The position numbers and the translations under genes are program-made. Below are positions 19,500 through 58,191 of a DNA stretch of 64,000 bases, in pieces; the stretch's first letter is position 1, and each line of letters opens with the position of its first letter. Below the pieces are notes generated by a model. It was not told the origin of the DNA and ran no database searches. It was given only the letters and a program-made list of their open reading frames with translations. The DNA comes from an uncultured Actinomycetes bacterium. Its GTDB lineage: Bacteria > Actinomycetota > Thermoleophilia > Gaiellales > Gaiellaceae. The DNA lies in the NCBI GenBank assembly GCA_963815005.1, contig CAWFFI010000006.1, positions 139,231 to 203,230 of the forward strand. The letters are read 5' to 3'.

Positions 19500-19521
19500 C
19501 CGCTGAGCGTAGTTGCTCCCG

Positions 19522-20991
19522 ATGCGAGAGGAAGGATCGCGTCCCTACTCTTCCGCCATGCATCCTTCAGCCTCCTTCAGCGCCGCCATCCGCGTGCGCA
19601 TCCAGAACCATCCGGGCGCCTTCGCGCGCCTCGCCTCCGCGATCGGGGAGGCCGGCGGCCTCCTCGGCGCCATCGACCTCGTCCGCGTCGAGCGCGACAC
19701 GAAGGTCCGCGACGTCAACGTCCTCGCCGACGACGAGCACCATCTCGACGCGATCGTCGAGGCCGTCCGCTCCGTCCCGGGCGTCGAGGTCGTCAACGTC
19801 TCCGACCGCGTCTTCCTCGCCCACCTCGGCGGCAAGCTCGAAGTGCAGCCGCGGTCGCCGCTGAAGACACGCGAGGACCTGTCCATGGTCTACACACCGG
19901 GCGTCGCGCGCGTCTCGCGCGCGATCGCCGACGATCCCGAGAAGGTCTGGAACCTGACGATCAAGCGGAACACGGTCGCGGTCGTCAGCGACGGCACCGC
20001 CGTGCTCGGCCTCGGCGACATCGGCCCCGAGGGCGCGCTGCCCGTGATGGAGGGCAAGGCCGTCCTCTTCAAGGAGTTCGCGGGCGTCGACGCATTCCCG
20101 ATCTGCCTCGCCACGAAGGACCCGGACGAGATCGTCCGGACCGTGGAGGCGATCGCCCCGGTGTTCGGCGGCATCAACCTCGAGGACATCTCCGCGCCCC
20201 GCTGCTTCGAGATCGAGCGGCGGCTGCGCGAGCGGCTCGACATCCCCGTGTTTCACGACGACCAGCACGGCACCGCGATCGTCGTCCTCGCTGCGCTCCT
20301 GAACGCGCTGCGCGTCGTCGGCAAGCGGATCGAGGACGTCCGCGTCGTCACGACAGGCTGCGGCGCCGCCGGCATGGCGGTCACGCGCACGCTCCAGCAC
20401 GCCGGCGTCCGCTGGATCGTCGGCTGCGACGAGGGCGGCGCCCTCTACCGCGGCCGCGAAGGGCTCAATCCGGCGAAGCAGGAGTACGCCGAGACGACGA
20501 ACCCCGACAACGTCACCGGCGCCGCCGACGACCTGCTCGAGGGCGCCGACGTCTTCATCGGCGTCTCCGTCCCGGGCGCGATCAGCGCCGACGGCGTCCG
20601 GCGGATGGCGCCGCGCGCGATCGTGTTCGCGATGGCGAACCCGAATCCGGAGGTCGACCCCGAGGCGATCGAGGGGCTCGCCGAGGTGATCGCCACCGGG
20701 CGCTCCGACTACCCGAACCAGATCAACAACGTGCTCGCGTTCCCCGGTGTCTTCCGCGGCGCGCTCGACGTGCGGGCGAAGACGATCAACGGAGCGATGG
20801 AGGTCGCGGCGGCCCGCGCGATCGCGGCGGCGATCTCCGACGAGGAGCTCTCCGCCGACTACATCGTCCCGAGCGTCTTCAACCGGGCGATCGCCCCGGC
20901 GGTCGCGGCCGCGGTCGCCGCCGCCGCCGAGGAGACGGGCGTCGCCCGCCGAGCGCACGCGGCCGGCCAGCCCGCACCGCTACTTCCGTAG
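19522..20991 (+). CDS. NAD(P)-dependent malic enzyme with an N-terminal ACT-like domain
   Basis: Malic enzyme blocks ([50 protein letters not shown]). Start options are TTG 19513, ATG 19522 and ATG 19558. Confidence 0.85.
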
Positions 20992-21057
20992 TTCGCCGCA
21001 GCAGGGATCGGCGGCCGAGCGGATGCCGCCGCTCCCCGTGCCCGCGAGCATCGACAC

Positions 21058-21531
21058 ATGGCGAACGTCACACATATCGAACAGCACCTCCCGGTTCCCT
21101 TCGAGACCGCAACCGTCGGCGACGCGATGAGCCCCGGCGTGATCAGCTGCCCTCCCGAGACGCCCCTGCGCGTCGTCGCGCGGATGATGTCGACGTTCAA
21201 CGTCCACTCCGTGTTCGTCTTCGAGCATCAGGACGAGGACGACGAGGACCGCCAGCTCTGGGCGGTCGTCTCCGACCTCGACCTCGTCGCCGCGTCGCAG
21301 CTCGACGTGGACGCCCGCACCGCCGGCGAGAGTGCAGTGACGCCGCTCGTCTCCGTCCCGGCCGACGTGCCGCTCCACGATGCCGGGGAGCTGATGTCCC
21401 AGCACGGGATCCACCACCTCGCCGTCATCGACCCGGTGACGAAGCGGCCGCTCGGCGTCGTCTCGACGCTCGACATCGCCCGCTCGCTCGCGGCCGGCCA
21501 CGGCCCGCGCGAGACGCAGGCTTCCGCGTAG
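21058..21531 (+). CDS. CBS-pair domain protein
   Basis: 157 aa with two CBS repeats (..VGDAMSPGVISCPPETPL..; ..HHLAVIDPVTKRPLGVVSTLDI..). Uninterrupted. Confidence 0.75.
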   Translation: MANVTHIEQHLPVPFETATVGDAMSPGVISCPPETPLRVVARMMSTFNVHSVFVFEHQDEDDEDRQLWAVVSDLDLVAASQLDVDARTAGESAVTPLVSVPADVPLHDAGELMSQHGIHHLAVIDPVTKRPLGVVSTLDIARSLAAGHGPRETQASA

Positions 21532-21583
21532 CGGCGCCGACGGCTTGCGCTGTCGGCCACTTCCTCCCGGTACCCTCCACGGT

Positions 21584-22336
21584 GTGGAAGAGAGCGCGCT
21601 CCGGCGCGGCAATGCCTGGCTGGCGGCGCTTCATGCGGCGCAGGCGGCGGTGATCCTTGCGCTCTCGACCGGCTTCTCGCTTCCGGTGACGGGCGCCTTC
21701 ATGGAGGGCCAGCCGGGCAGTGGGCCGCCGCGGCAGGATGTGCTCTTCAACCTCCGCATCGGCCCGCTCGTCGCCGCGTTCCTGTTGCTCGCGGCGATCG
21801 ACCACGCTCTCGTCGCGCTCCCGCCGTTCCGCGCGCGCTACGAGCGGTGCCTCGCCGCCGGCGTCAACCCGTTCCGCTGGCTCGAATACTCGCTGTCGGC
21901 GTCGGTGATGGTCGTGCTGATCGCGATGCTGACCGGCATCGCCGACTATGTCGCGTTGTTCGCCCTCTTCGCCGCGAATGCGGCGATGATCTTCCTCGGT
22001 TGGCTGATGGAGCAGCTCAACCCGCCGGATCGTGCCCGGACGCGCTGGCTGCCTTTCGGGCTCGGCTGCGCCGTCGGGGCCGTGGCGTGGATCGCGATCG
22101 GACTGCAGATCGGCGTCTCGGCGGGACGTGGACACGCGCCGCCGAGCTTCGTCTACGCGATCTTCGTCTCACTCTTCGTCCTGTTCAACAGCTTTGCCGT
22201 GAACCAGGCCCTGCAGTACAAGCGGGTCGGGCGCTGGCGCGACTACCGCTACGGCGAGCGCTGGTACCTCTGGCTGAGCCTGGTCGCGAAGAGCCTGCTC
22301 GCATGGCAGGTCTTCGCGAACGTGCTCGTGCTCTGA
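21584..22336 (+). CDS. Heliorhodopsin
   Basis: 7-TM protein that aligns end to end with heliorhodopsin 48C12 as I recall it. Shared blocks: FRWLEYSLSASVMVVLIA (counter-ion Glu), LFNSFAVNQALQYK, LSLVAKSLLAWQ (Schiff-base Lys). Alternative start at TTG 21545. Uninterrupted. Confidence 0.85.
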   Translation: MEESALRRGNAWLAALHAAQAAVILALSTGFSLPVTGAFMEGQPGSGPPRQDVLFNLRIGPLVAAFLLLAAIDHALVALPPFRARYERCLAAGVNPFRWLEYSLSASVMVVLIAMLTGIADYVALFALFAANAAMIFLGWLMEQLNPPDRARTRWLPFGLGCAVGAVAWIAIGLQIGVSAGRGHAPPSFVYAIFVSLFVLFNSFAVNQALQYKRVGRWRDYRYGERWYLWLSLVAKSLLAWQVFANVLVL

Positions 22337-22521
22337 GCGAACGACGACAACGGGTAACGGCTAACGCGACGCACGGGGCGTCGCATGGGGCAGTGTTCGA
22401 TGCCCTCGCGACTTGCCCTCGTCGCCGCACCGTCGTGCTCGCCGGTGCACGATTGCCGGCACAGGCTCTCCAGTTCCGCCAGGCGGCTCATCGCAGGCGC
22501 TCGAACCGGAGGTGTCACCCG

Positions 22522-23043
22522 TCAAAACTCTCGTACGGTCAGCAGGCTGTTGCCGTGGACGGCGTCGTGCTCGATCCGGCCCGTTTCGCGGAACCCGAGC
22601 TTCTCCAGGACCCGCCGCGAGGCGGCATTCCAGTCCCTGACCGTTGCCCACAACCGGGCGTAGCCCGCGTCGCTCACCCACGTGACCACGGCCCGGCCCG
22701 CCTCGGTTGCGTAACCACGGCCCTGGGCCGCACGCAACAACTCGTAGGCCAACTCGGGCTCGTCGGGCGATCCGTTGCCATGAAAGACCAGTCCGCAATA
22801 CCCGATGACGTCGGCCGTGTGCTTCCGCTCCACCGTGAGGATCCCCGGTCTCGACTCCTCACGCCCTGCGCGTATCTGCGCGGCGACGTCCTCCAGGGTG
22901 GGTCGGCCCTCGGGATCTATCCGCCGATGCGGCGGCACCCGTGGATCCCGCTCGGTCCACAGCCGGCGATAGATGGCGGCCTCGTCGACTCTGGGCTGCC
23001 GAAGGATGAGGCGATCGGTCTCCAAGGTGTCCAGAACGGGCAC
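22522..23043 (-). CDS. GNAT family N-acetyltransferase (RimJ/RimL-like)
   Basis: 173-aa uninterrupted ORF (TDRLILRQP.., ELAYELLRAAQGRGYATEA..) in a visibly less GC-rich stretch. Confidence 0.75.
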   Translation of the reverse strand: MPVLDTLETDRLILRQPRVDEAAIYRRLWTERDPRVPPHRRIDPEGRPTLEDVAAQIRAGREESRPGILTVERKHTADVIGYCGLVFHGNGSPDEPELAYELLRAAQGRGYATEAGRAVVTWVSDAGYARLWATVRDWNAASRRVLEKLGFRETGRIEHDAVHGNSLLTVREF

Positions 23044-23156
23044 TCACGACATCGTGACAGTGCGTCCGCGTCAGCGCGCAACGACGATCAGCCGTGTCGG
23101 AAGAGGCGAACCCTTCGCCTGGGCAAGCGTGTCACTCGCTCGATGCCGTACGTCGA

Positions 23157-23179
23157 GCAAGTAACACGTTGTCACTTGC
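23157..23179 (-). terminator. Terminator-like hairpin after the pot/oxidase operon
   Basis: GCAAGT..ACTTGC stem directly after the TAG at 23180-23182 (minus strand). A second small hairpin GGCGAA-CCC-TTCGCC lies at 23105-23119. Confidence 0.4.
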
Positions 23180-24609
23180 CTAGCGGGTGCCGAGCTCCAT
23201 CCCGAGCAGCCGCGGCAGCGCGGCGCCCGCGCGCGCGACGAACGACGGCCGCCGGCCCTGCTCCTCGGCCTCCTCGCACGCCATGATCGCGGCGCGGACG
23301 AGTCCGCCGCCGACGCGGCGGAACGGCTCGCCCGGGAGCCGCGGCACGCGGCGCGTCGCGAGCGGCAGCCGCGTCCACTCGTCGTCGGCGCCGAGGACGA
23401 GCGAGGCGAGGATCCGGCCGCCGAGCCAGCTCGGGCCGACGCCGTGGCCGGAGTAGCCGGCGCCGTAGTGGACGCGCGTGCCCGGCTTCGTCGCGAAGAA
23501 CGGCAGGTGGTCGGCCGAGACGTCGATCGGGCCGCCCCACGACCGCTCGACGCGCGCGGCGCGCGAGCCCCGGCAGCAGCCGCCGCAGCCCCGCCTCGGC
23601 ACGGCCCGCGCTCGCCCGGTCGGTGTCGAAGCGGGCGTCGACCCGGCCGCCGAAGCCGATCGGCCCCGACCCGCTGCCCATCAGCACGCGGCCGTCCGCG
23701 GGTGGTGCGGAAGTAGTGGAGGAACATGCGCGCGTCGAAGATCCCCTCCCCGCCCGTCCAGCCGATCTCCTCGAGCAGCTCCGGCACCGGCTCGGTGAGG
23801 ACGACGTACGAGCCGAAGTTCGTGAGCGAGCGGCCCGCCGGCCGCCAGCCGGTGAGCGCCGCGTTCGTCGCGAGCACGACCTCGGGTGCACGGAGCGTGC
23901 CGCGCGGCGTCTCGATCACGTTCGGCTTCCCGGCGCGCACGCGGAGCGCGGGCGTCCGCTCGTGGACCGTCACGCCCGCCGCAATCGCCGCGCGACGCAG
24001 CGCACGCACGAGCAGCCCCGGATGCACCGTCGCCCCGTCCGGGAAGAAGACGCCGCCCCGGAACGTCGCCGAGGAGACGCGCCGCCCGAGCTCCTCCCGC
24101 GAGAGCGCCACGGCCTGGTCGGGCCGCCCCACCGCGGCCGCCGCCGCCACCGCCTCCTCGAGCGCGGCGTCCTGCGCCGGCGCGGCCGACACGAGCAGGT
24201 TCCCGGCCTCGCGCAGCCAGACGTCCTCGCCACGGGCCTCCGCCCACGCGCGGATCCCCGGCACGATCGCCTCGCCGGCCCGCGCGAGCGCGAGCGCCTG
24301 CTCGTCGCCGAGCACGGGCCGCAGCGACCCGAGCGCCGCCCAGTAGCCGTGCAGGAAGCCGCCGTTGCGGCCGCTCGGCCCGTGGCCGCAGACCTCCGCC
24401 TCGAGGAGCGTCACCCGCAGCTCCGGCGCCCGCTCGCGCAGCTCGAGCGCCGTCCAGAGCCCGGTGTAGCCGCCGCCGACGACGACCACGTCGGCCGTCG
24501 CCTCACCGTCGAGCGCCGGTGCCGGCGCCGGCTCGCCCTCCGCTGCGAGCGCATCCTCCAGCCACCAGGCCGGGAGCCGCGGCTCGACCCCGGTGACGCT
24601 CGGGTTCAT
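23180..24609 (-). CDS. FAD-dependent oxidoreductase (gamma-glutamylputrescine oxidase-like), two frame breaks (about 23700 and 23563)
   Basis: ATG 24609 (ATGA overlap with the potC stop). VVVVGGGYTGLWTA FAD motif. Homologous blocks continue in successive +1 frames (ADGRVLMGSGSGPIGFGG..; ARVERSWGGPIDVSADHLPFF..GYSGHGVGPS..). Confidence 0.75.
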
Positions 24610-25454
24610 GCCCGCTTGGCGCGGCTGTTCTGGATCAGCACGTTGCCGAGCATCCCGACGACCGCGATCACGAAGATCGCCGTCCCGATCACGTTGATCT
24701 GCGGCGGCACGGCGACACGGGCGGCACCCCAGACGAAGAGCGGGAACGTCGTCACGGTGCCGGCGTTGAAGTACGTGATCACGAAGTCGTCGATCGAGAG
24801 CGCGAACGCGAGCAGCGAGGCCGCGAGGATCCCGGGCGCGATCAGCGGCAGCGTCACGCGGGCGAACGTCACCGCCTCGTTCGCGCCGAGGTCCATCGCC
24901 GCCTCCTCGAGATGGCGGTCGAAGCCGACGAGGCGCGCGCGCACGGTCACGACGACGTACGAGATGTTGAACATGATGTGCGCGATCAGGATCGTCCCGA
25001 AGCCCTGCGGGATCTTCCAGTTGAGGAAGAGCGTCAGCAGCGACGCGCCCATCACGATCTCCGGCGTCGTCATCGGGATGAAGATCAGGAGGTTCGTCGT
25101 CGCCGAGCCGCGGAACTTGTAGCGGACGAGCGCGAGCGCGATCAGCGTGCCGAGGATCGTGGAGAAGAGCGCCGACAGGACGGCGATCTCGACCGAGATC
25201 TGGAGCGCGCTGCCGAGCCCCGGATAGTCGAGCGGGTGCAGCCAGTTGTCGAACGTGAAGCCCTGCCACGTGTAGTTGAAGCGGCCGAGCGGGTTGTTGA
25301 ACGAGAACGCGACGACGATCCCGATCGGCAGGAACAGGTACGCGAGCGCGAGCAGGGCGTAGACGTCGAGCACGTGCCGGCGGACGAACCGCCACGCCCG
25401 CACCGGCGCCGACAGGCCCTGCCGCGCCGGCACCGCGCCCGAGACCGCGCTCAC
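24606..25454 (-). CDS. potC: Spermidine/putrescine ABC transporter permease
   Basis: GTG 25454 overlaps the potB stop. Six-TM permease with an EAA-like loop (EEAAMDLGANEAVTFARVTLP). Confidence 0.8.
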   Translation of the reverse strand: MSAVSGAVPARQGLSAPVRAWRFVRRHVLDVYALLALAYLFLPIGIVVAFSFNNPLGRFNYTWQGFTFDNWLHPLDYPGLGSALQISVEIAVLSALFSTILGTLIALALVRYKFRGSATTNLLIFIPMTTPEIVMGASLLTLFLNWKIPQGFGTILIAHIMFNISYVVVTVRARLVGFDRHLEEAAMDLGANEAVTFARVTLPLIAPGILAASLLAFALSIDDFVITYFNAGTVTTFPLFVWGAARVAVPPQINVIGTAIFVIAVVGMLGNVLIQNSRAKRA

Positions 25455-44927: not shown

Positions 44928-45101
44928 ATGACTACTCGCCACGCACTCTCCCTCGCCGCCGTGCTCGCCGCGACCGTCCTCACGGGCGGCGCCGCGATCC
45001 TCGGCCTGAACCACGTGCCCTCGTCCACCGCTTCGACCCCCGCAGTCGTCCAGGCCGTCCAGCCGGCGTCCGCGCCGGCCCAGTGGGAAGGAGGAGACTG
45101 A
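44928..45101 (+). CDS. Small exported/membrane-anchored protein (57 aa)
   Basis: Not in the ORF track (below its size cut-off). My own translation is MTTRHALSLAAVLAATVLTGGAAILGL..QWEGGD. The TGA overlaps the next ATG. Confidence 0.4.
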   Translation: MTTRHALSLAAVLAATVLTGGAAILGLNHVPSSTASTPAVVQAVQPASAPAQWEGGD

Positions 45102-45321
45102 TGCAGCGCGTCTGGGCCACCGTCCTCTCCGTCTGGGCGATGCTCGCGATCGTCGCGTTCCTCGCCTGGAGCCGGACGCCCGCGCCGGCACCCGCCCCGC
45201 AGGCCGCCGCGCAGACGCTCGTCGTCCAGGGCGCGAACGGCAAGCAGCAGCTCGTCACCGTCGCCCCGGCGCCGTCGGAGCGCCCCATGCGACGACCTCG
45301 ACCTCCGGCGTCGTCCGATGA
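45101..45321 (+). CDS. Small single-pass membrane protein; 3' end uncertain
   Basis: ATG 45101 is 5 nt after GGAAGGAGGAG. TM segment VWATVLSVWAMLAIVAFLAW. As sequenced the frame stays open. A frame change near 45280 would give TGA 45319-45321, overlapping the apbE ATG. Confidence 0.4.
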
Positions 45322-46274
45322 CCGCCCGGCTCGAGCGGACCGCCTTCCACGCGGTCGGCACGACGTGCGCGGCGGCCGTGACCGCCGGTCCCGGCGACAC
45401 CCGGCGCGCCCGCCGCGCGCTCGACGCGGCCCGCGCCGAGGTCGCGGCCTGCGAGCGGTCGCTCTCCCGCTTCGACGCGGCGAGCGACCTCTCGCGGCTC
45501 AACGCCGCCGGCGGCGCCTGGACGCCGGTCGACCGGCGCCTGCTCGAGGCCCTGCGGCTCGCGCTGCGTGCCCGCGAGGACACCGGCGGACGGTTCGACC
45601 CGACCGTCCTCCCCGCGCTCGCGGCCGCCGGCTACGACCGCTCCTTCGAGCAGCTCGAGGAGCGCCCCGCGCGACCGGCCCCCGGCTGGCGCGCGGGCGC
45701 GGAGATCGAGCTCGATCCCGTCGCGGGCCGTGCCCGGCTCGAGTCCGGCACGGCGGTCGACCTCGGCGGCATCGGCAAGGGCTACGCCGCCTCGCGCGCA
45801 CTCGCCGCAATGGCCGAGGCGTGGCCGGGACTCCCGGGCGGACTCGTCGACCTGGGCGGCGACCTCGCCCTCGCCGGCGAGACGCCCGAGCGCGGCCCAT
45901 GGCGGATCGCCGTCGCCGACCCGCGCCGCCCCGGCACGACCGCCGGCACGCTGCTCCTGCACGGAGGCGGCGTCGCCACCTCGGGCCGCGACGTCCGCCG
46001 GTTCGGCCCGGGCGGCTCGCTCCATCATCTGATCGACCCCGCCACCGGCGAGCCCGCCCGGCCGGGGCCGCTCACGGTCACCGTCGTCGCGCCGGATGCC
46101 GCAGAGGCGGAGGCGCACGCGACCGCGCTCGCGATCCTCGACGTCGAGGCGGCCGCCGCGCATGTCGCCGCGCGCCCGCAGCTCTCGGCGCTCTACGTGC
46201 CGCACGCGGGCGCACCGCTGCCGCTGGGCAGGCTGCCGCTCGCGCCGGCCCGGATCCTCGTGAGGGCCGCCTGA
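45318..46274 (+). CDS. apbE: FAD:protein FMN transferase
   Basis: 318-aa uninterrupted ORF with ApbE blocks (SRFDAASDLSRLN, DLGGIGKGYA, VATSGRDVRRF..HHLIDPATG). Confidence 0.85.
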   Translation: MTARLERTAFHAVGTTCAAAVTAGPGDTRRARRALDAARAEVAACERSLSRFDAASDLSRLNAAGGAWTPVDRRLLEALRLALRAREDTGGRFDPTVLPALAAAGYDRSFEQLEERPARPAPGWRAGAEIELDPVAGRARLESGTAVDLGGIGKGYAASRALAAMAEAWPGLPGGLVDLGGDLALAGETPERGPWRIAVADPRRPGTTAGTLLLHGGGVATSGRDVRRFGPGGSLHHLIDPATGEPARPGPLTVTVVAPDAAEAEAHATALAILDVEAAAAHVAARPQLSALYVPHAGAPLPLGRLPLAPARILVRAA

Positions 46275-46833
46275 TGGCGTCGCTCCCGATCGCGTGGCTC
46301 GTCGCCCGCTCCGCCGGACTCGTCGCGTTCGGGCTGCTGACCCTGTCGGTCTGGCTCGGGCTCGGGATGAGCACGCGGCTGCTCGGGCCGCGCCGCCAGA
46401 AGACCCTGCTCGGCCTGCACCGGACGCTCGTCTGGGTCGGGCTCTCGATGCTCGTCCTCCACGTCGGCGCGCTCCTGCTCGACCCGACGCTCCACTTCGG
46501 GCTCGGCTCGGTGCTCGTCCCGTACGTCTCGACGTGGAAGCCGGGCTCGGTCGCCATGGTGTCGTCGCCGGCTGGCTCAGCCTGATGCTCGCGGCCTCGT
46601 TCCGGGCCAGGAAGTGGATCGGCCAGAAGGGCTGGCGGCGGCTCCACTACGCGAGCTTCGGCGCGTTCGCGCTCTCGCTCGGGCACGCGCTGCTCGTCGG
46701 CACCGACCTCCAGGGGCTCGGCGGGCCGCTGCTCGCGCTGCTCGCGGCCGGCCCGGTGATCTGGCTCGTCTTTTACCGGCTCCTCGTCGGGAGGACGCCA
46801 CCGCGCCCGGTCGCGGCGCCGTCCCCCGCCTGA
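46274..46833 (+). CDS. Ferric reductase-like transmembrane (di-heme, MsrQ/YedZ-like) protein, frame break near 46558
   Basis: ATGA overlap with apbE. Two His pairs sit in TM helices (LHRTLVWVGLSMLVLHVG; RLHYASFGAFALSLGHALL). The second half is in the +1 frame. Confidence 0.65.
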
Positions 46834-51094: not shown

Positions 51095-51167
51095 TGGAGC
51101 TAGGCGGGCTCGAACCGCCGACCTCCTGGGTGCGATCCAGGCGCTCTCCCAGCTGAGCTATAGCCCC
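51095..51167 (-). tRNA. tRNA-Ala(CGC): tRNA-Ala (anticodon CGC)
   Basis: Hand-folded cloverleaf. Acceptor GGGGCTA/TAGCTCC with the G3:U70 Ala identity pair; D arm GCTC/GAGC; anticodon stem CCTGG/CCAGG with loop AT-CGC-AC; T arm GGCGG-TTCGAGC-CCGCC. CCA is not encoded. Confidence 0.95.
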
Positions 51168-51214
51168 GCGGCCACAAAGTGTAGCGAGCGCGAAGGGCGA
51201 CCTACGATACGCCG

Positions 51215-52227
51215 GTGCCCGTCACGGCGACCTACGAGCTGCGGCCGCCGGAGTGGGCGGAGACGCTGGCGATCCTCCAGTCGGTCAGCCTTCCGGACGG
51301 CCCGGAGTCCGTGCGGGCGCGCGTCGTCTCCGTCGACGGGCCACGCGTGACGGTGGAGTTCCCGGCGCTCGCGGACGAGCTCTCCGCGGAGCAGCTGCTG
51401 GCCGTCTGCATCGCGGGCGAGTGGGCCGACCGCGGCGACTTCGAGTCGTGCCGGCTCGTCGAGATCGCCTGGCCGGACGGGCTGCCCGGGCCGGCCTTCG
51501 GCGCGGAGCCCGGCGTCTCGGTCGGCGCGATCGTGAAGCCGGCGCTCGGGTTGACGCCCGAGCAGGCGGGCGCGGTCGCGGCGGAGCTCGCAGCCGGCGG
51601 GGCGGTCTTCCTCAAGGACGACGAGCTGATGGCGAGCCCCGGGTACTCCCCGCTCGCCGAGCGGGTGCGCCGCATCGCGGAGCGGATCCCGCGCGGGGTG
51701 CGCTACGCGCCGAACATGACCGGGCCGCCGGAGGGGCTGCTCGCGCGGGCGGAGGCGGCGGTCGAGGCGGGCGCGGGAGCGCTGATGGTGAACGCGATTC
51801 CTGCAGGGGCTCGGCTCGATCCGCGCGCTGCGGGAGGCGAACCTCGGCGTGCCGCTCTTCGTCCACCGCGTCGGCTCGTCGTTCCTGCGCCGCGGCGGCG
51901 CGGTCTCGGTCTCGGCGCGCGTGCTCGCGGAGCTGACCCGGCTGCTCGGCGCCGACTACGTCCAGGTCGGGTCGTTCTCGCCGCGCACGTTCGACACCGA
52001 CGACGAGGTGCGCGAGCAGATCGCCGCGTGCCGGGATGAGCTCGGCGTCGCGCCGGCGACGGCGGTGCTCGGCGGCGGCGTCGGCGCGGAGAACGCGGCC
52101 GAGCCAGCTCGCGCGGGCCGGCACCCGCGACGGCGTCATGCTCCTGCTCGGCTCCGCCGCATACGCGCACCCGGACGGCCTCCGCGCCGGCGTCGCCGCC
52201 GCGGTGTCGGCGGCAACGCGCCCGTAG
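51215..52227 (+). CDS. RuBisCO large-subunit-like protein (form IV RLP-like, about 337 codons), two frame breaks (about 51797 and 52100)
   Basis: GTG 51215. Blocks present are VKPALGL (KPKLGL-like), FLKDDE, VHRVG, GGGVG and GSAAYAHPDG. The three homologous segments are in successive +1 frames, ending at TAG 52225-52227. Confidence 0.65.
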
Positions 52228-54878: not shown

Positions 54879-55865
54879 ATGGCCGCGTCCGGCTTTCCGG
54901 CAGGTCCCGACGGGTTCTTCAGCATCCGCCTCGAGTCCATCGGCGGGCTCGGCGCCCATCTGGCCGGGCAGATGCTCGCCGAGGCGGTCGTCCTCCGCCA
55001 GGGCCTGAACGCGTCGCACTTCTCCTCCTACGGCTCGGAGAAGAAGGGAACACCGGTGAAGTCGTTCGTGCGGATCGCGCCGTCCGAGCAGGAGATCCGC
55101 ACCTCGAGCCCGGTCGAGTCGCCGCAGGTCGTCGCGGTCTTCCACGAGGCGCTCGTCGGCTCGCTCGACGTGCTCGCCGGCCTCCCCGCCGACGGGACGG
55201 CGATCGTGAACACCGGCGCCGACCCGGACGAGCTGCGCGCGCGGCTCGGCCTCGAATGGGGCACCGTCGGCGCGCTCGACGCGCTCGGGATCGCGGTCGA
55301 GGAGAAGACGCGTGTGAACACGGCGCTCCTCGGCGCGGTCGTCCGCGCCTGCCCCGTGATCGAGCCCGACGCGGTGCGCGAGACGATCGAGGCGACGTTC
55401 TCGCGCCGCCATCCCGAGGTCGTCGAGGCGAACCTGCGCACGTTCGACCGCGGCTTCGAGGAGCTCCAGATGACGACGGTTGCCGCGCCCGCCGGCGCCG
55501 CCGGGCGCCCGGTCACGCGCCCTGCGCCGGCCTTCGGCTACCTCGACGCCCCGATCGGCGGCACGATCCTCGAGCCGGCGAACAGCATCGTCAAGGACAT
55601 GAGCACGTCGCGCGAGGGCTTCCTGCCCGAGCTCTCACTCGACGAGTGCGTCCACTGCGGGCTCTGCGACATCGTCTGCCCCGACCTCTGCCTCGTCTGG
55701 GAGGAGTCGGCCGAGGGCGTCCGCCTGCGCGGAATCGACTACCGGTACTGCAAGGGCTGCCTGAAGTGCGTCGAGGCCTGCACGACCGGCGCGATGGTCG
55801 AGCGCCGCGAGGAGCCGGGCTGGGCGGCCGAGCATCGCGTCGCCCTGTTCGGGGAGCTCGTCTGA
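54879..55865 (+). CDS. 2-oxoacid:ferredoxin oxidoreductase gamma subunit fused to a delta (2x[4Fe-4S] ferredoxin) domain
   Basis: Gamma-type block (GGLGAHLAGQMLAEA..SSYGSEKKGTPV) followed by CVHCGLCDIVCP and CKGCLKCVEAC. Uninterrupted. Confidence 0.8.
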   Translation: MAASGFPAGPDGFFSIRLESIGGLGAHLAGQMLAEAVVLRQGLNASHFSSYGSEKKGTPVKSFVRIAPSEQEIRTSSPVESPQVVAVFHEALVGSLDVLAGLPADGTAIVNTGADPDELRARLGLEWGTVGALDALGIAVEEKTRVNTALLGAVVRACPVIEPDAVRETIEATFSRRHPEVVEANLRTFDRGFEELQMTTVAAPAGAAGRPVTRPAPAFGYLDAPIGGTILEPANSIVKDMSTSREGFLPELSLDECVHCGLCDIVCPDLCLVWEESAEGVRLRGIDYRYCKGCLKCVEACTTGAMVERREEPGWAAEHRVALFGELV

Positions 55866-57193
55866 TGGCCGTCTCCGCCCGTCCGCGCCGCGCCGCCGCC
55901 GCCGCCCAGGTGCAGGAGTTCCGCTCCGGCAACGAGATGGCGGCGATCTCGGCGCAGCACATCGACTTCCACGTGATGGGCTACTACCCGATCACGCCCT
56001 CGACCGAGATCGCGGAGCTCCTCGACGAGCGCAAGGCGGAGGGCGCGCACCGGACGGTGATGATCCCCGCCGACGGCGAGCACGGCGCGGCGGGCATCTG
56101 CTACGGCGCCTCGGTCGGCGGCGGGCGCGTCTTCAACGCGACGAGCTCGCAGGGGCTCCTCTACGGGCTGGAGCAGTACCCCGTCCAGGCCGGCACGCGC
56201 TTCCCGATGCTGCTCGACCTCGCCACGCGCTCGGTCAGCGGCCCGCTCGACATCCGCGGCGACCACTCCGACCTCTACTACGCGCTCGACACCGGCTGGC
56301 TCGTCCTCTGCGCCCGCGACCCGCAGGCCGTCTACGACCTGAACGTCTGCGCGCTGCGCGCCGCCGAGCACCCGGATGTGCGGCTGCCCGCGCTGGTCGC
56401 CTTCGACGGCTTCTTCACCTCGCACCAGAAGCGGCGCGTCTCGGTCTTCGAGGATCCCGCCGTCGTGCGCGAGTTCCTCGGTCCGTTCACCGAGACCGTC
56501 TCGGCGCTCGACCCGGGGCATCCGATCACGGTCGGGCCGTACATGAACGACCCCGACCTGATCAACAACAAGTTCCAGCTCAACCTCGCGATGGCGGCCG
56601 CGCTCGGCGTGCTGCCCGACGTGTTCGCCGCCTACGAGCAGCTCTCCGGCCGCCGCTACGACCTCGTCGACTCCTACCGGATGGAAGACGCCGAGGTCGC
56701 GCTCCTGCTCGTCAACTCCGCCGCCGAGACGGCGAAGGACGCGGCCGACCGGCTGCGCGAGCAGGGCATCCGCGCCGGCGTCCTCAGCCCGAACGTCCTG
56801 CGTCCCTTCCCGGCCACGATCCTGCGCGACGCGCTCCGCGGCGTGCGCGCGCTCGTGATCGGCGAGCGCGCCGACTCGTACGGCTCCGGCGGCGGCCCCG
56901 TCTCGCACGAGGTCAAGTCGGCGCTGAAGGACGACCCGGAGAACGCGACGCGCTGCCTGACGAGGATCTACGGGCTCGGCGGCCGCGACTTCTACACCGA
57001 GGACGCGGAGGCGTTCTTCCGGCTCGCCCTGGACGCGCTCGACGGCGCGCCCGTGCCCGTGTTCGGCTACCACGGCGTCACGCCCGGCGACCCGGCGAAC
57101 CCGCCGCACCGGCCCGGCCTGCCGCCGCTCCGCCCGGAGGAGACGGTCAGCGGCCTCGTCCACGTGCACGACACGGGCAACGGGAAGCTCGAC
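55865..57193 (+). CDS. 2-oxoacid:ferredoxin oxidoreductase alpha subunit (no in-frame stop before the beta region)
   Basis: ATG 55865 overlaps the upstream TGA. PorA/VorB-type blocks (GNEMAAISA..YYPITPSTE, FNATSSQGL). The frame stays open past about 57190, where homology to beta begins in the +1 frame. Confidence 0.75.
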
Positions 57194-58191
57194 GGTCGAG
57201 GCGCCGCCCGCCTGGCAGCTCGCGGCCCGCCCGAAGCGCGTCGCGCCCGGTCACGGCGCCTGCCCCGGCTGCGGCGTGTTCCCGGCGCTCGACCAGTTCC
57301 TGCGCGGGATCGAGGGCGACGTCGTCGTCCTCTACCAGACCGGCTGCGCGATGGTCGTCTCGACCGGCTACCCGTACTCGTCGCACCGGGTCACGTACGT
57401 CCACAACCTGTTCCAGAACGGGGCGGCGACGCTCTCCGGCCTCGTCGAGATGTTCCACGAGCGCAAGCGGCGCGGCGAGCTCCCCGCCGGCGAGGACATC
57501 ACCTTCGTGATGGTCACCGGCGACGGCGGCATGGACATCGGCACGGGCGCCGCGATCGGCACCGCCCTCCGCAACCACCGCCTGATCATCGTCGAGTACG
57601 ACAACCAGGGCTACATGAACACGGGCGCGCAGCAGAGCTACTCGACGCCGCTCGGCCACCGCACCTCGACGAGCCACGTCGGCCCGGGCGAGCACGGCAA
57701 GTCGTTCCACCACCGCGACACGCCGCAGATCATGGCGGCGACGAACATCCCCTACGTCTTCACCGGCGTCGAGGGCTTCCCCGACGACCTGCTCGCGAAG
57801 GGCGCGAAGGCGCAGTGGTACGCATCGGAACGAGGGGATGGCCTACGGGAAGATCCTCATCTCCTGCCCGCTGAACTGGCTGACCGCGGATCGCGCCGGC
57901 ACCGACGTCGTGCGCACCGCGGTCGACTCGTGCTTCTTCCCGCTCTACGAGATCGAGCGGCACAAGACGTCGCTCACGTACGACCCGGAGCCGCTCGGCC
58001 GGCGCGTCCCGGTCGCCGACTGGCTGCGGACGATGGGCAAGACGCGGCACCTGACGAAGCCCGGCTTCGAGGACGACCTCGCGTCGATCGAGGCCGAGGT
58101 CGACCGCCGCTGGCGGCGGCTGAAGGCGATGAGCGAGCACCCGCGAGCTCTAGGAGACCGATGGCGAGAATCCTCGACAAGCTCGAGCTGA
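57194..58191 (+). CDS. 2-oxoacid:ferredoxin oxidoreductase beta (TPP-binding) subunit; start undefined, frame break near 57833
   Basis: PGHGACPGCG and TGDGGMDIG TPP motifs. The continuation (MAYGKILISCPLNWL..EVDRRWRRLKAM) is in the +1 frame. No start codon separates it from alpha. Confidence 0.75.

Follow-up and report, generated by a model that had tools for sequence, protein, structure and literature searches.

Gene organization of the locus

The DNA analysed here (the window) is a stretch of 64,000 nucleotides from an uncultured bacterium of the Gaiellaceae (Actinomycetota; GenBank assembly GCA_963815005.1, contig CAWFFI010000006.1, positions 139,231 to 203,230), and the subject of the analysis is a heliorhodopsin (HeR) gene located directly downstream of a gene for a soluble, stand-alone CBS-pair protein. 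The genes for an ACT-domain malic enzyme, the CBS-pair protein and HeR follow each other on the forward strand, and they are faced on the opposite strand by the genes for a GNAT acetyltransferase and a FAD-dependent oxidoreductase of the DAO family (Table 1). In an initial annotation, made from the sequence without database searches, the CBS and HeR genes had been regarded as a candidate light-sensing pair. The gene order described there was confirmed, with the CBS stop codon 13 nt before a TTG and 52 nt before a GTG of the HeR open reading frame (ORF) on the same strand and with the malic enzyme, verified by Pfam, upstream of the CBS gene. In the following, L numbers designate loci used for comparison and P numbers designate database proteins.

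Table 1. Features of the HeR locus, other features of the window and recurrent HeR settings in relatives
Feature	Position	Strand	Basis or remark
Heliorhodopsin (HeR) gene, 250 aa, GTG start	21584..22336	+	PF18761, NF038020, 48C12 alignment, AlphaFold2 (AF2), Foldseek, dN/dS
HeR unit (46-nt upstream stub, ORF and 12 nt past the stop)	21538..22348	+	blastn of L178/L179 and L001-L011, flank alignments
Lineage-specific insertion of 1.58 kb (HeR and GNAT) in the CBS-DAO slot	21538..23115	.	blastn break-points in relatives
GC-rich 9-bp hairpin at the 5' edge of the unit, 5 nt past the CBS stop	21536..21557	+	Minimum free energy fold
TACCCT, a TANNNT -10-like hexamer, 7 nt before the GTG	21571..21576	+	Aligned orthologous loci
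GC hairpin GCGACGC-ACGGG-GCGTCGC, 29 nt past the HeR stop, outside the unit	22365..22384	+	Inverted repeat and fold
Stand-alone CBS-pair protein, 157 aa, soluble	21058..21531	+	PF00571; backbone member, outside the HeR unit
ACT-domain malic enzyme, N-terminal ACT	19513..20991	+	PF00390, PF03949, PF13291; synteny in L081-L087 and L095 onward
GNAT (RimJ/RimL-like) acetyltransferase, convergent with HeR, second slot passenger	22522..23043	-	PF13302, E=1.3e-23
FAD-dependent oxidoreductase (DAO family) in three pieces, right-hand backbone anchor	23189..24627	-	PF01266 in L081/L086 orthologues; tblastn
Frame-broken gene pieces	23189-24627 (-), 44946-46791, 55862-58143, others		Adjacent frame-shifted fragments
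RuBisCO large-chain-like protein, frame-split	51212-52103	+	PF00016, E=1.7e-22
TspO-HeR loci	L088:7496-8753, L094:1605-2860, L001:5650-6750, L004:5517-6750		
Fasciclin-HeR loci	L002, L005, L007, L008, L009, L039, L051, L053, L057, L065		Actinomycetota and Chloroflexota

Identity of the heliorhodopsin gene

The product of the HeR gene was covered end to end by PF18761 (positions 1-242/242, E=2.1e-92, 309 bits with a cut-off of 26.7), and the NCBIfam equivalog NF038020 ("heliorhodopsin HeR") gave 287 bits (cut-off 100), so that the family match lies far beyond chance. The best matches by sequence among solved structures were 48C12 (6su3, 6uh3 and 9ljj; E=1e-59) and TaHeR (6is6; E=1.6e-55), with full-length identities of 45% and 42%, respectively. 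The five blocks quoted in the initial annotation (ALHAAQ, IDHALV, NPFRWLEYSLSASVMVVLIA, LFNSFAVNQALQYK and GERWYLWLSLVAKSLLAWQVF) are all present in the ORF (5/5). In the alignment with 48C12, the Schiff-base Lys236 (Lys249 when numbered from the TTG; codon 22289-22291) corresponds to K241 in transmembrane helix 7 (TM7) within an ungapped block, the counter-ion Glu101 (Glu114; codon 21884-21886) to E107 in TM3, His17 (His30; codon 21632-21634) to H23 and His74 (His87; codon 21803-21805) to H80. All four residues stand in positions aligned to 48C12 and TaHeR and are invariant across 20 aligned HeR homologues (56-92% identity).

The AF2 model built on the alignment of these 20 homologues (mean pLDDT 88.6, pTM 0.83) was compared with solved structures by Foldseek, which gave a TM-score of 0.92 and a root-mean-square deviation of 1.8 Å to 6su3, in comparison with TM-scores of 0.54-0.65 to type-1 rhodopsins. 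The seven-helix fold is thus common to the window protein, 48C12 (PDB 6SU3, 6UH3; TM-score 0.92) and TaHeR (PDB 6IS6; TM-score 0.90), and so are the long beta-hairpin between TM1 and TM2 and a charge distribution pointing to an inside N-terminus. According to the positive-inside rule, the 13 Lys and Arg residues carried by loops 2-3, 4-5 and 6-7 (11 residues) together with the N-terminus, versus 2 on the opposite side, predict an inverted topology with a cytoplasmic N-terminus, as in the HeR family.

The profile matches (PF18761, NF038020), the residue alignment with 48C12 and the AF2/Foldseek comparison agree with the earlier identification as a heliorhodopsin, and the Schiff-base lysine and the counter-ion glutamate, previously placed by eye, were both found to be placed correctly by profile search, alignment and structure prediction. 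The protein is therefore a heliorhodopsin of the kind already known by all criteria of the family that concern sequence or structure; it comes from another lineage (soil Gaiellaceae) than 48C12 and TaHeR, and functionally no difference from them is visible from the sequence. Deposited proteins are 92-95% identical to it, some of them named "heliorhodopsin HeR [Gaiellaceae bacterium]", and the top matches of the HeR, CBS and GNAT proteins all come from metagenome-assembled genomes of Gaiellaceae/Thermoleophilia. The window's own proteins are deposited as part of an NCBI/ENA contig of 218,452 bp. The ratio of nonsynonymous to synonymous substitution rates (dN/dS) of 0.13-0.23 against nine orthologues indicates that the gene is under purifying selection and selectively maintained.

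Start codon, gene intactness and assembly quality

The ORF extends from either 21545 (TTG) or 21584 (GTG) to 22336. The TTG was rejected in favour of the GTG, because the orthologues are 250 aa long with their ATG or GTG starts aligned to 21584 and because any alignment of the upstream stub across orthologues needs indels whose lengths are not divisible by three.

For the evaluation of assembly quality, a second assembly of the same locus from another sample (L180; ENA ERZ25039495 contig_3798) was available, which carries the malic enzyme, CBS, HeR and GNAT genes in the same order as the window. The two are 95.9% identical over 7.3 kb and differ by 29 indels, for which reason the frame breaks of the window (Table 1) look like long-read consensus errors rather than pseudogenes. 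The statement in the initial annotation that the HeR gene is uninterrupted amid frame-broken genes is correct in that the gene is intact and the breaks are real; since the breaks are probably assembly errors, the intactness carries little weight as a special signal. A mis-assembly that spliced the HeR segment into the contig might be considered in view of so many frame breaks in an error-prone assembly. Such a chimera is scarcely credible, because the independent assembly shows the identical order of malic enzyme, CBS, HeR and GNAT, and the conserved synteny runs on at both flanks of the HeR segment.

A database protein of 527 aa with Pfam matches to both CBS and Heliorhodopsin (P0363; L180:5155-6738, equivalent to 21058-22640 of the window) was examined as a possible CBS-HeR fusion and rejected. 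It is the window locus itself as assembled in L180, in which a 1-nt indel near the CBS stop leads to read-through of the intergenic stub into HeR. Spurious calls of this type could seed false evidence of domain fusion.

Insertion of HeR into a variable slot of a conserved backbone

The surroundings of the CBS gene were compared in 87 loci carrying CBS orthologues (67-95% protein identity), with the use of called genes together with tblastn. The conserved backbone consists of Thioredox_DsbH (-), MaoC, GNAT (in some relatives only), CoA_transf_3, HMGL-like (-), the ACT-domain malic enzyme and CBS, followed by a variable slot and then by DAO (-), two ABC permeases (-) and a solute-binding protein (-). 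By blastn, the matches of L081, L085, L086, L097, L098, L099 and L109 to the window end at 21530-21543 and restart at 23115-23180; that of L095 also ends at 21543, with non-matching sequence beyond on its contig. With the matches of the relatives ending near 21537 and restarting near 23115, the comparison identifies the HeR and GNAT segment as an insertion relative to the nearest backbone relatives, starting 6 nt after the CBS stop.

Across 30 loci, -1 to 3590 bp separate the CBS stop from the end of DAO, and the slot is occupied by SnoaL and GFA genes in L081-L084 and is empty in L086, L097, L104, L109 and others. As a separate observation, the CBS-DAO junction (21531-23115 in the window; the slot in L081-L174) appears as a hot spot for accessory genes, with about 3.6 kb of DNA in L100 and L103.

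The G+C content at third codon positions (GC3) is 0.89 for HeR and 0.83 for GNAT, the lowest value of the neighbourhood, with 0.93-0.98 for the flanking backbone genes; the value for GNAT hints at horizontal transfer. Homologues of the GNAT protein at 80-87% identity also occur in distant Actinomycetota, including Blastococcus and Streptosporangiaceae.

The location of HeR and GNAT in a single 1.58-kb insertion, with GC3 values both below those of the backbone genes, could be taken to mean that the two genes were acquired together and work together. This is highly improbable. The homology to other HeR loci ends 12 nt past the HeR stop and before GNAT, a GNAT orthologue is present in 0 of the other HeR loci examined, and the tail-to-tail orientation allows no shared transcript. 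The closest GNAT homologues (87% identity) have other neighbours, being followed elsewhere by Glyoxalase_6, and lack HeR; the two passengers therefore do not seem to have arrived as a pair.

The HeR unit and its contexts in relatives

The HeR loci for comparison were obtained by a scan that gave at least 592 loci, of which the best 80 were examined, and the contigs of the closest proteins added further loci. The blastn match of L178/L179 to the window is limited to 21538-22348 (93.7% nucleotide identity), its left end being the left edge of the window insertion, and in L001-L011 the homology is likewise confined to the HeR gene plus a few tens of bases. HeRs with 90-95% protein identity are preceded by genes that are unrelated to CBS and differ between loci, namely HMG-CoA reductase (P0362; L178/L179), TspO/MBR (P0002, P0005, L001, L004) and an alpha/beta hydrolase (P0366; L181).

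The upstream stub is conserved across these differing contexts. At the position of TACCCT, most orthologous loci in other contexts read TAGGCT, TAGCCT or TACGCT, and upstream of the window HeR there is no Shine-Dalgarno sequence; the hexamer may be the -10 box of HeR itself, giving a leaderless or short-leader mRNA, a suggestion of low certainty drawn from the alignment. The hairpin at the 5' edge of the unit has an equivalent after the TspO stop in L088 (z=-3.05) and might conceivably act as a terminator lacking a U-tail or as an insulator. The hairpin beyond the unit (22365-22384) is a possible terminator and has no T-run. A scan of 20800-23300 for consensus sigma-70 promoters and terminators found no sites, and with Rfam no riboswitch or leader was detected near HeR, the sole match being a tRNA at 51095-51167. 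An integron-type cassette was considered and rejected, as conservation ends 5-12 nt past the stop and neither an attC-like element nor an integrase was found.

In L181 (758-12233), the HeR is 92.8% identical to that of the window and lies near Transposase_mut and HTH_23 genes, a rolling-circle REP_ORF2-G2P gene and a large serine recombinase, a setting that suggests carriage of HeR on a mobile element.

For the families recurring beside HeR, Pfam matches of an inclusive ORF list near HeR were tallied in about 75 loci, and the 25 commonest families were listed. The upstream tally contained Fasciclin 10 times, Epimerase/NmrA 4-5 times, and TspO, DUF2867 and the combination of B12-binding and HTH_17 3 times each; downstream, 122 families occurred, each at most 3 times. 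This agrees with the published description of HeR neighbourhoods as "promiscuous" (PMC8612252).

Several of these neighbours deserve separate mention. The most recurrent neighbour is a fasciclin-domain (PF02469) protein, encoded immediately before HeR and in the same orientation in 10 of the roughly 75 loci; one database protein (P0035) has been called as a Fasciclin-HeR fusion, and a literature search found no co-mention of heliorhodopsin and fasciclin. The nearest HeR relatives (88-92% aa identity) are preceded by a TspO/MBR gene which, where intact, has the same orientation and ends about 35-55 nt before HeR (Table 1); no co-mention of "heliorhodopsin" and "TspO" was found in the literature search. 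In L088, HeR is followed by genes for DnaJ, HSP20, a sigma-70 factor, fatty-acid desaturase, amine oxidase, DUF1365 and cyclopropane-fatty-acid synthase, a set which we take to resemble photo-oxidative stress regulons. The B12-binding and HTH_17 combination, which has the architecture of CarH/LitR-like light-responsive regulators, immediately precedes HeR in three of the loci L001-L080 and fits the published "MerR family" group of HeR neighbours (PMC11109279).

Association of the CBS gene with HeR and with the malic enzyme

HeR is absent from all of the CBS-orthologue loci (87/87), 63 of which extend 800 bp or more past the CBS gene, and conversely a CBS orthologue or malic enzyme beside HeR was found in 0/87 HeR loci. 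A CBS-family profile (hidden Markov model, HMM) run over the HeR loci detected no adjacent CBS-like ORF and only two such ORFs at 4-5 kb from HeR. CBS is not among the 25 upstream families listed of 79 in the tally described above, which could conceal a single CBS neighbour; the local search with the CBS HMM found none adjacent. In the literature, the ten published groups of HeR neighbours do not include CBS (PMC11109279), nor do the neighbour classes of PMC8612252. Of two papers that mention both CBS and heliorhodopsin, one evidently means carotenoid-binding site by "CBS" and the other has each term a single time. About 61% of HeR genes were predicted to be alone in their operon (PMC11109279). 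As regards spacing, the 52-nt gap between CBS and HeR is above the limit of <10 bp used in PMC8612252 and above the peak of -20 to 30 bp given for same-direction intergenic distances in PMC11109279; the gap contains a hairpin, and neither a consensus terminator nor a consensus promoter was detected in it.

The count of CBS genes directly 5' of HeR that the initial annotation had suggested as a check is thus 0/87 among the HeR loci, and the adjacency is confined to this lineage in both samples (0/87 CBS loci and 0/87 HeR loci), an outcome which that annotation had itself named as speaking against its proposal. On these comparisons a light-sensing pair of CBS and HeR is very unlikely. Because HeR was inserted at this site, because the pairing recurs nowhere and because near-identical HeRs have other neighbours, the adjacency is, as judged by gene order, incidental and a by-product of the insertion site.

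The malic enzyme lies directly 5' of CBS in 49 of the 73 loci with enough upstream sequence. As this pair is conserved in relatives irrespective of HeR, the CBS gene is on the evidence of synteny a fixed partner of the malic enzyme and not of HeR, and the CBS protein more plausibly serves the ACT-domain malic enzyme. Two CBS motifs were detected in it (PF00571, 2 stretches, E=8.6e-20), and its nearest solved relatives are stand-alone CBS pairs, with alignments to 2ef7 and 1xkf. Residues 14-145 align with Rv2626c (Hrp1) of M. tuberculosis (E=6e-6), which also has two CBS motifs; unlike in Rv2626c, the first CBS motif of the window protein contains an acidic insert (QDEDDEDRQ), and the gene is fixed downstream of the ACT-domain malic enzyme in Gaiellaceae, where its orthologues are 70-95% identical. 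The CBS-pair protein with this insert and the ACT-domain malic enzyme may be noted as a candidate regulatory pair across Gaiellaceae.

Interpretation and alternative explanations

The locus is likely to represent an autonomous Gaiellaceae HeR which, carried in a unit of about 0.8 kb, landed in a variable slot of the backbone, its pairing with CBS being incidental. The unit, with its own stub (the hairpin and then the TANNNT box), would have inserted between CBS and DAO, GNAT being the other passenger in the slot, and HeR would have a promoter of its own that may yield a leaderless mRNA. From the alignment and the model, the protein is predicted to be a retinal-binding seven-transmembrane photoreceptor with the N-terminus inside, Lys236 as the Schiff-base residue and Glu101 as the counter-ion. 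Characterized bacterial HeRs do not pump ions, have a long-lived photointermediate and regulate partners via positive inside loops (PMC9529153; PMC9769723; PMC11109279), and a carotenoid second antenna taken up from outside has been proposed for HeRs (bioRxiv 10.1101/2025.11.27.691015). By analogy, the window HeR may be a light sensor or regulatory helper with a slow photocycle, or it may absorb light with the aid of a carotenoid. Its partners, if any, would be encoded elsewhere, and retinal would come from genes elsewhere in the genome or be imported. The earlier remark that the window shows no gene for retinal or carotenoid biosynthesis held in Pfam scans of the coding segments and, between 14 and 29 kb, in the gene calls of syntenic relatives; these turned up neither crt or blh nor photolyase, glnA or TspO in the window, where inspection by eye covered the ABC-transporter segments (about 8.4-10.8 and 36.5-40.4 kb).

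Several observations weigh against an autonomous unit in incidental company. CBS and HeR lie on the same strand just 52 nt apart, the scan detected neither a canonical terminator nor a sigma-70 promoter in the gap, and their co-transcription is possible in this strain. The hairpin at the edge of the unit is indistinguishable from shuffled sequences in the window (z=-0.64), and at the place of the -10-like hexamer L005-L007 read GAGGCT (GGAGGCT), which resembles a Shine-Dalgarno ribosome-binding site and not a -10 box. A repeat search around the insertion (21300-23400) gave no more than short matches as expected by chance, with neither inverted nor direct repeats at its ends, and the Pfam scans of the window revealed no integrase or recombinase domain. 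Finally, the best 80 of at least 592 HeR loci were sampled, and rare CBS-HeR pairs elsewhere are conceivable.

In the model put forward in the initial annotation, CBS and HeR share a transcript, and HeR offers its cytoplasmic loops as a docking site to the soluble CBS protein, which relays the light or ligand state. The same-strand arrangement across 52 nt with no consensus terminator in between would suit this model, as would the occurrence of the arrangement in two independent assemblies and the 11 Lys and Arg residues in the three inside loops of the window HeR, known HeRs being able to regulate soluble neighbours via positively charged intracellular loops (PMC9529153; PMC9769723; PMC11109279). 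In the tested interactions of AbHeR with glutamine synthetase, TfHeR with photolyase and OcHeR with the OmrDE ABC transporter, described in the same papers, there is also a close gene on the same strand and a HeR with positively charged intracellular loops; however, those neighbours recur across organisms (ten published groups), whereas the CBS neighbour recurs nowhere and the HeR beside it was inserted. The proposed pair also resembles in concept that of sensory rhodopsin II and HtrII, with a photoreceptor encoded beside a signal relay. Htr transducers, however, sit in the membrane, touch the rhodopsin through transmembrane helices and are co-conserved with it, whereas the window CBS protein lacks any hydrophobic segment and shows no co-conservation with HeR. 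The restriction to one lineage (0/87 in either set of loci), the conservation of CBS with the malic enzyme regardless of a HeR that came by insertion, and the existence of HeRs 90-95% identical with no CBS neighbour all argue against a functional pair, and the CBS protein, 93-95% identical to orthologues lacking an adjoining HeR, consequently gives no sign of adaptation to a new partner. The docking model is, on balance, very improbable.

The same proximity would be explained at the level of transcription if HeR had accidentally been captured by an operon and were read through from the promoter of the malic enzyme and CBS genes besides or instead of its own. The common strand, the short gap, the insertion only 6 nt past the CBS stop and the lack of a T-tailed terminator are in accordance with such read-through. 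On the other side stand the 9-bp GC hairpin directly after the CBS stop and the fact that the stub with its TANNNT box accompanies HeR into unrelated contexts, from which expression seems independent of the upstream gene. Operon capture is rather unlikely, if far less so than protein-level coupling, and equally doubtful is its corollary that HeR expression tracks central-carbon regulation without CBS coupling at the protein level.

On the reading preferred here, that of an autonomous unit, the same-strand adjacency across 52 nt is the scar of a recent insertion, HeR being found beside four unrelated genes in close relatives. The output of HeRs is debated and their partners have often been deduced from neighbouring genes, for which a tidy adjacency such as the present one can be misleading. 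One candidate HeR transducer is thereby removed, and HeR neighbourhoods should be accepted only if they recur across lineages.

A modest lead is that HeR may move among Gaiellaceae as a promoter-bearing single-gene unit. It may tentatively be suggested that the unit of about 0.8 kb has repeatedly been relocated or exchanged between genomes into intergenic hot spots by an unrecognised mechanism. If so, inference of HeR function from gene neighbourhoods would be systematically unreliable in Gaiellaceae, and TspO (in the closest relatives) and the fasciclin-domain proteins (in Actinomycetota and Chloroflexota) would be better leads.

Other features of the window

The frame-split gene for a RuBisCO large-chain-like protein (Table 1) adjoins the genes for a LysE exporter and for the tRNA at 51095-51167 (-).

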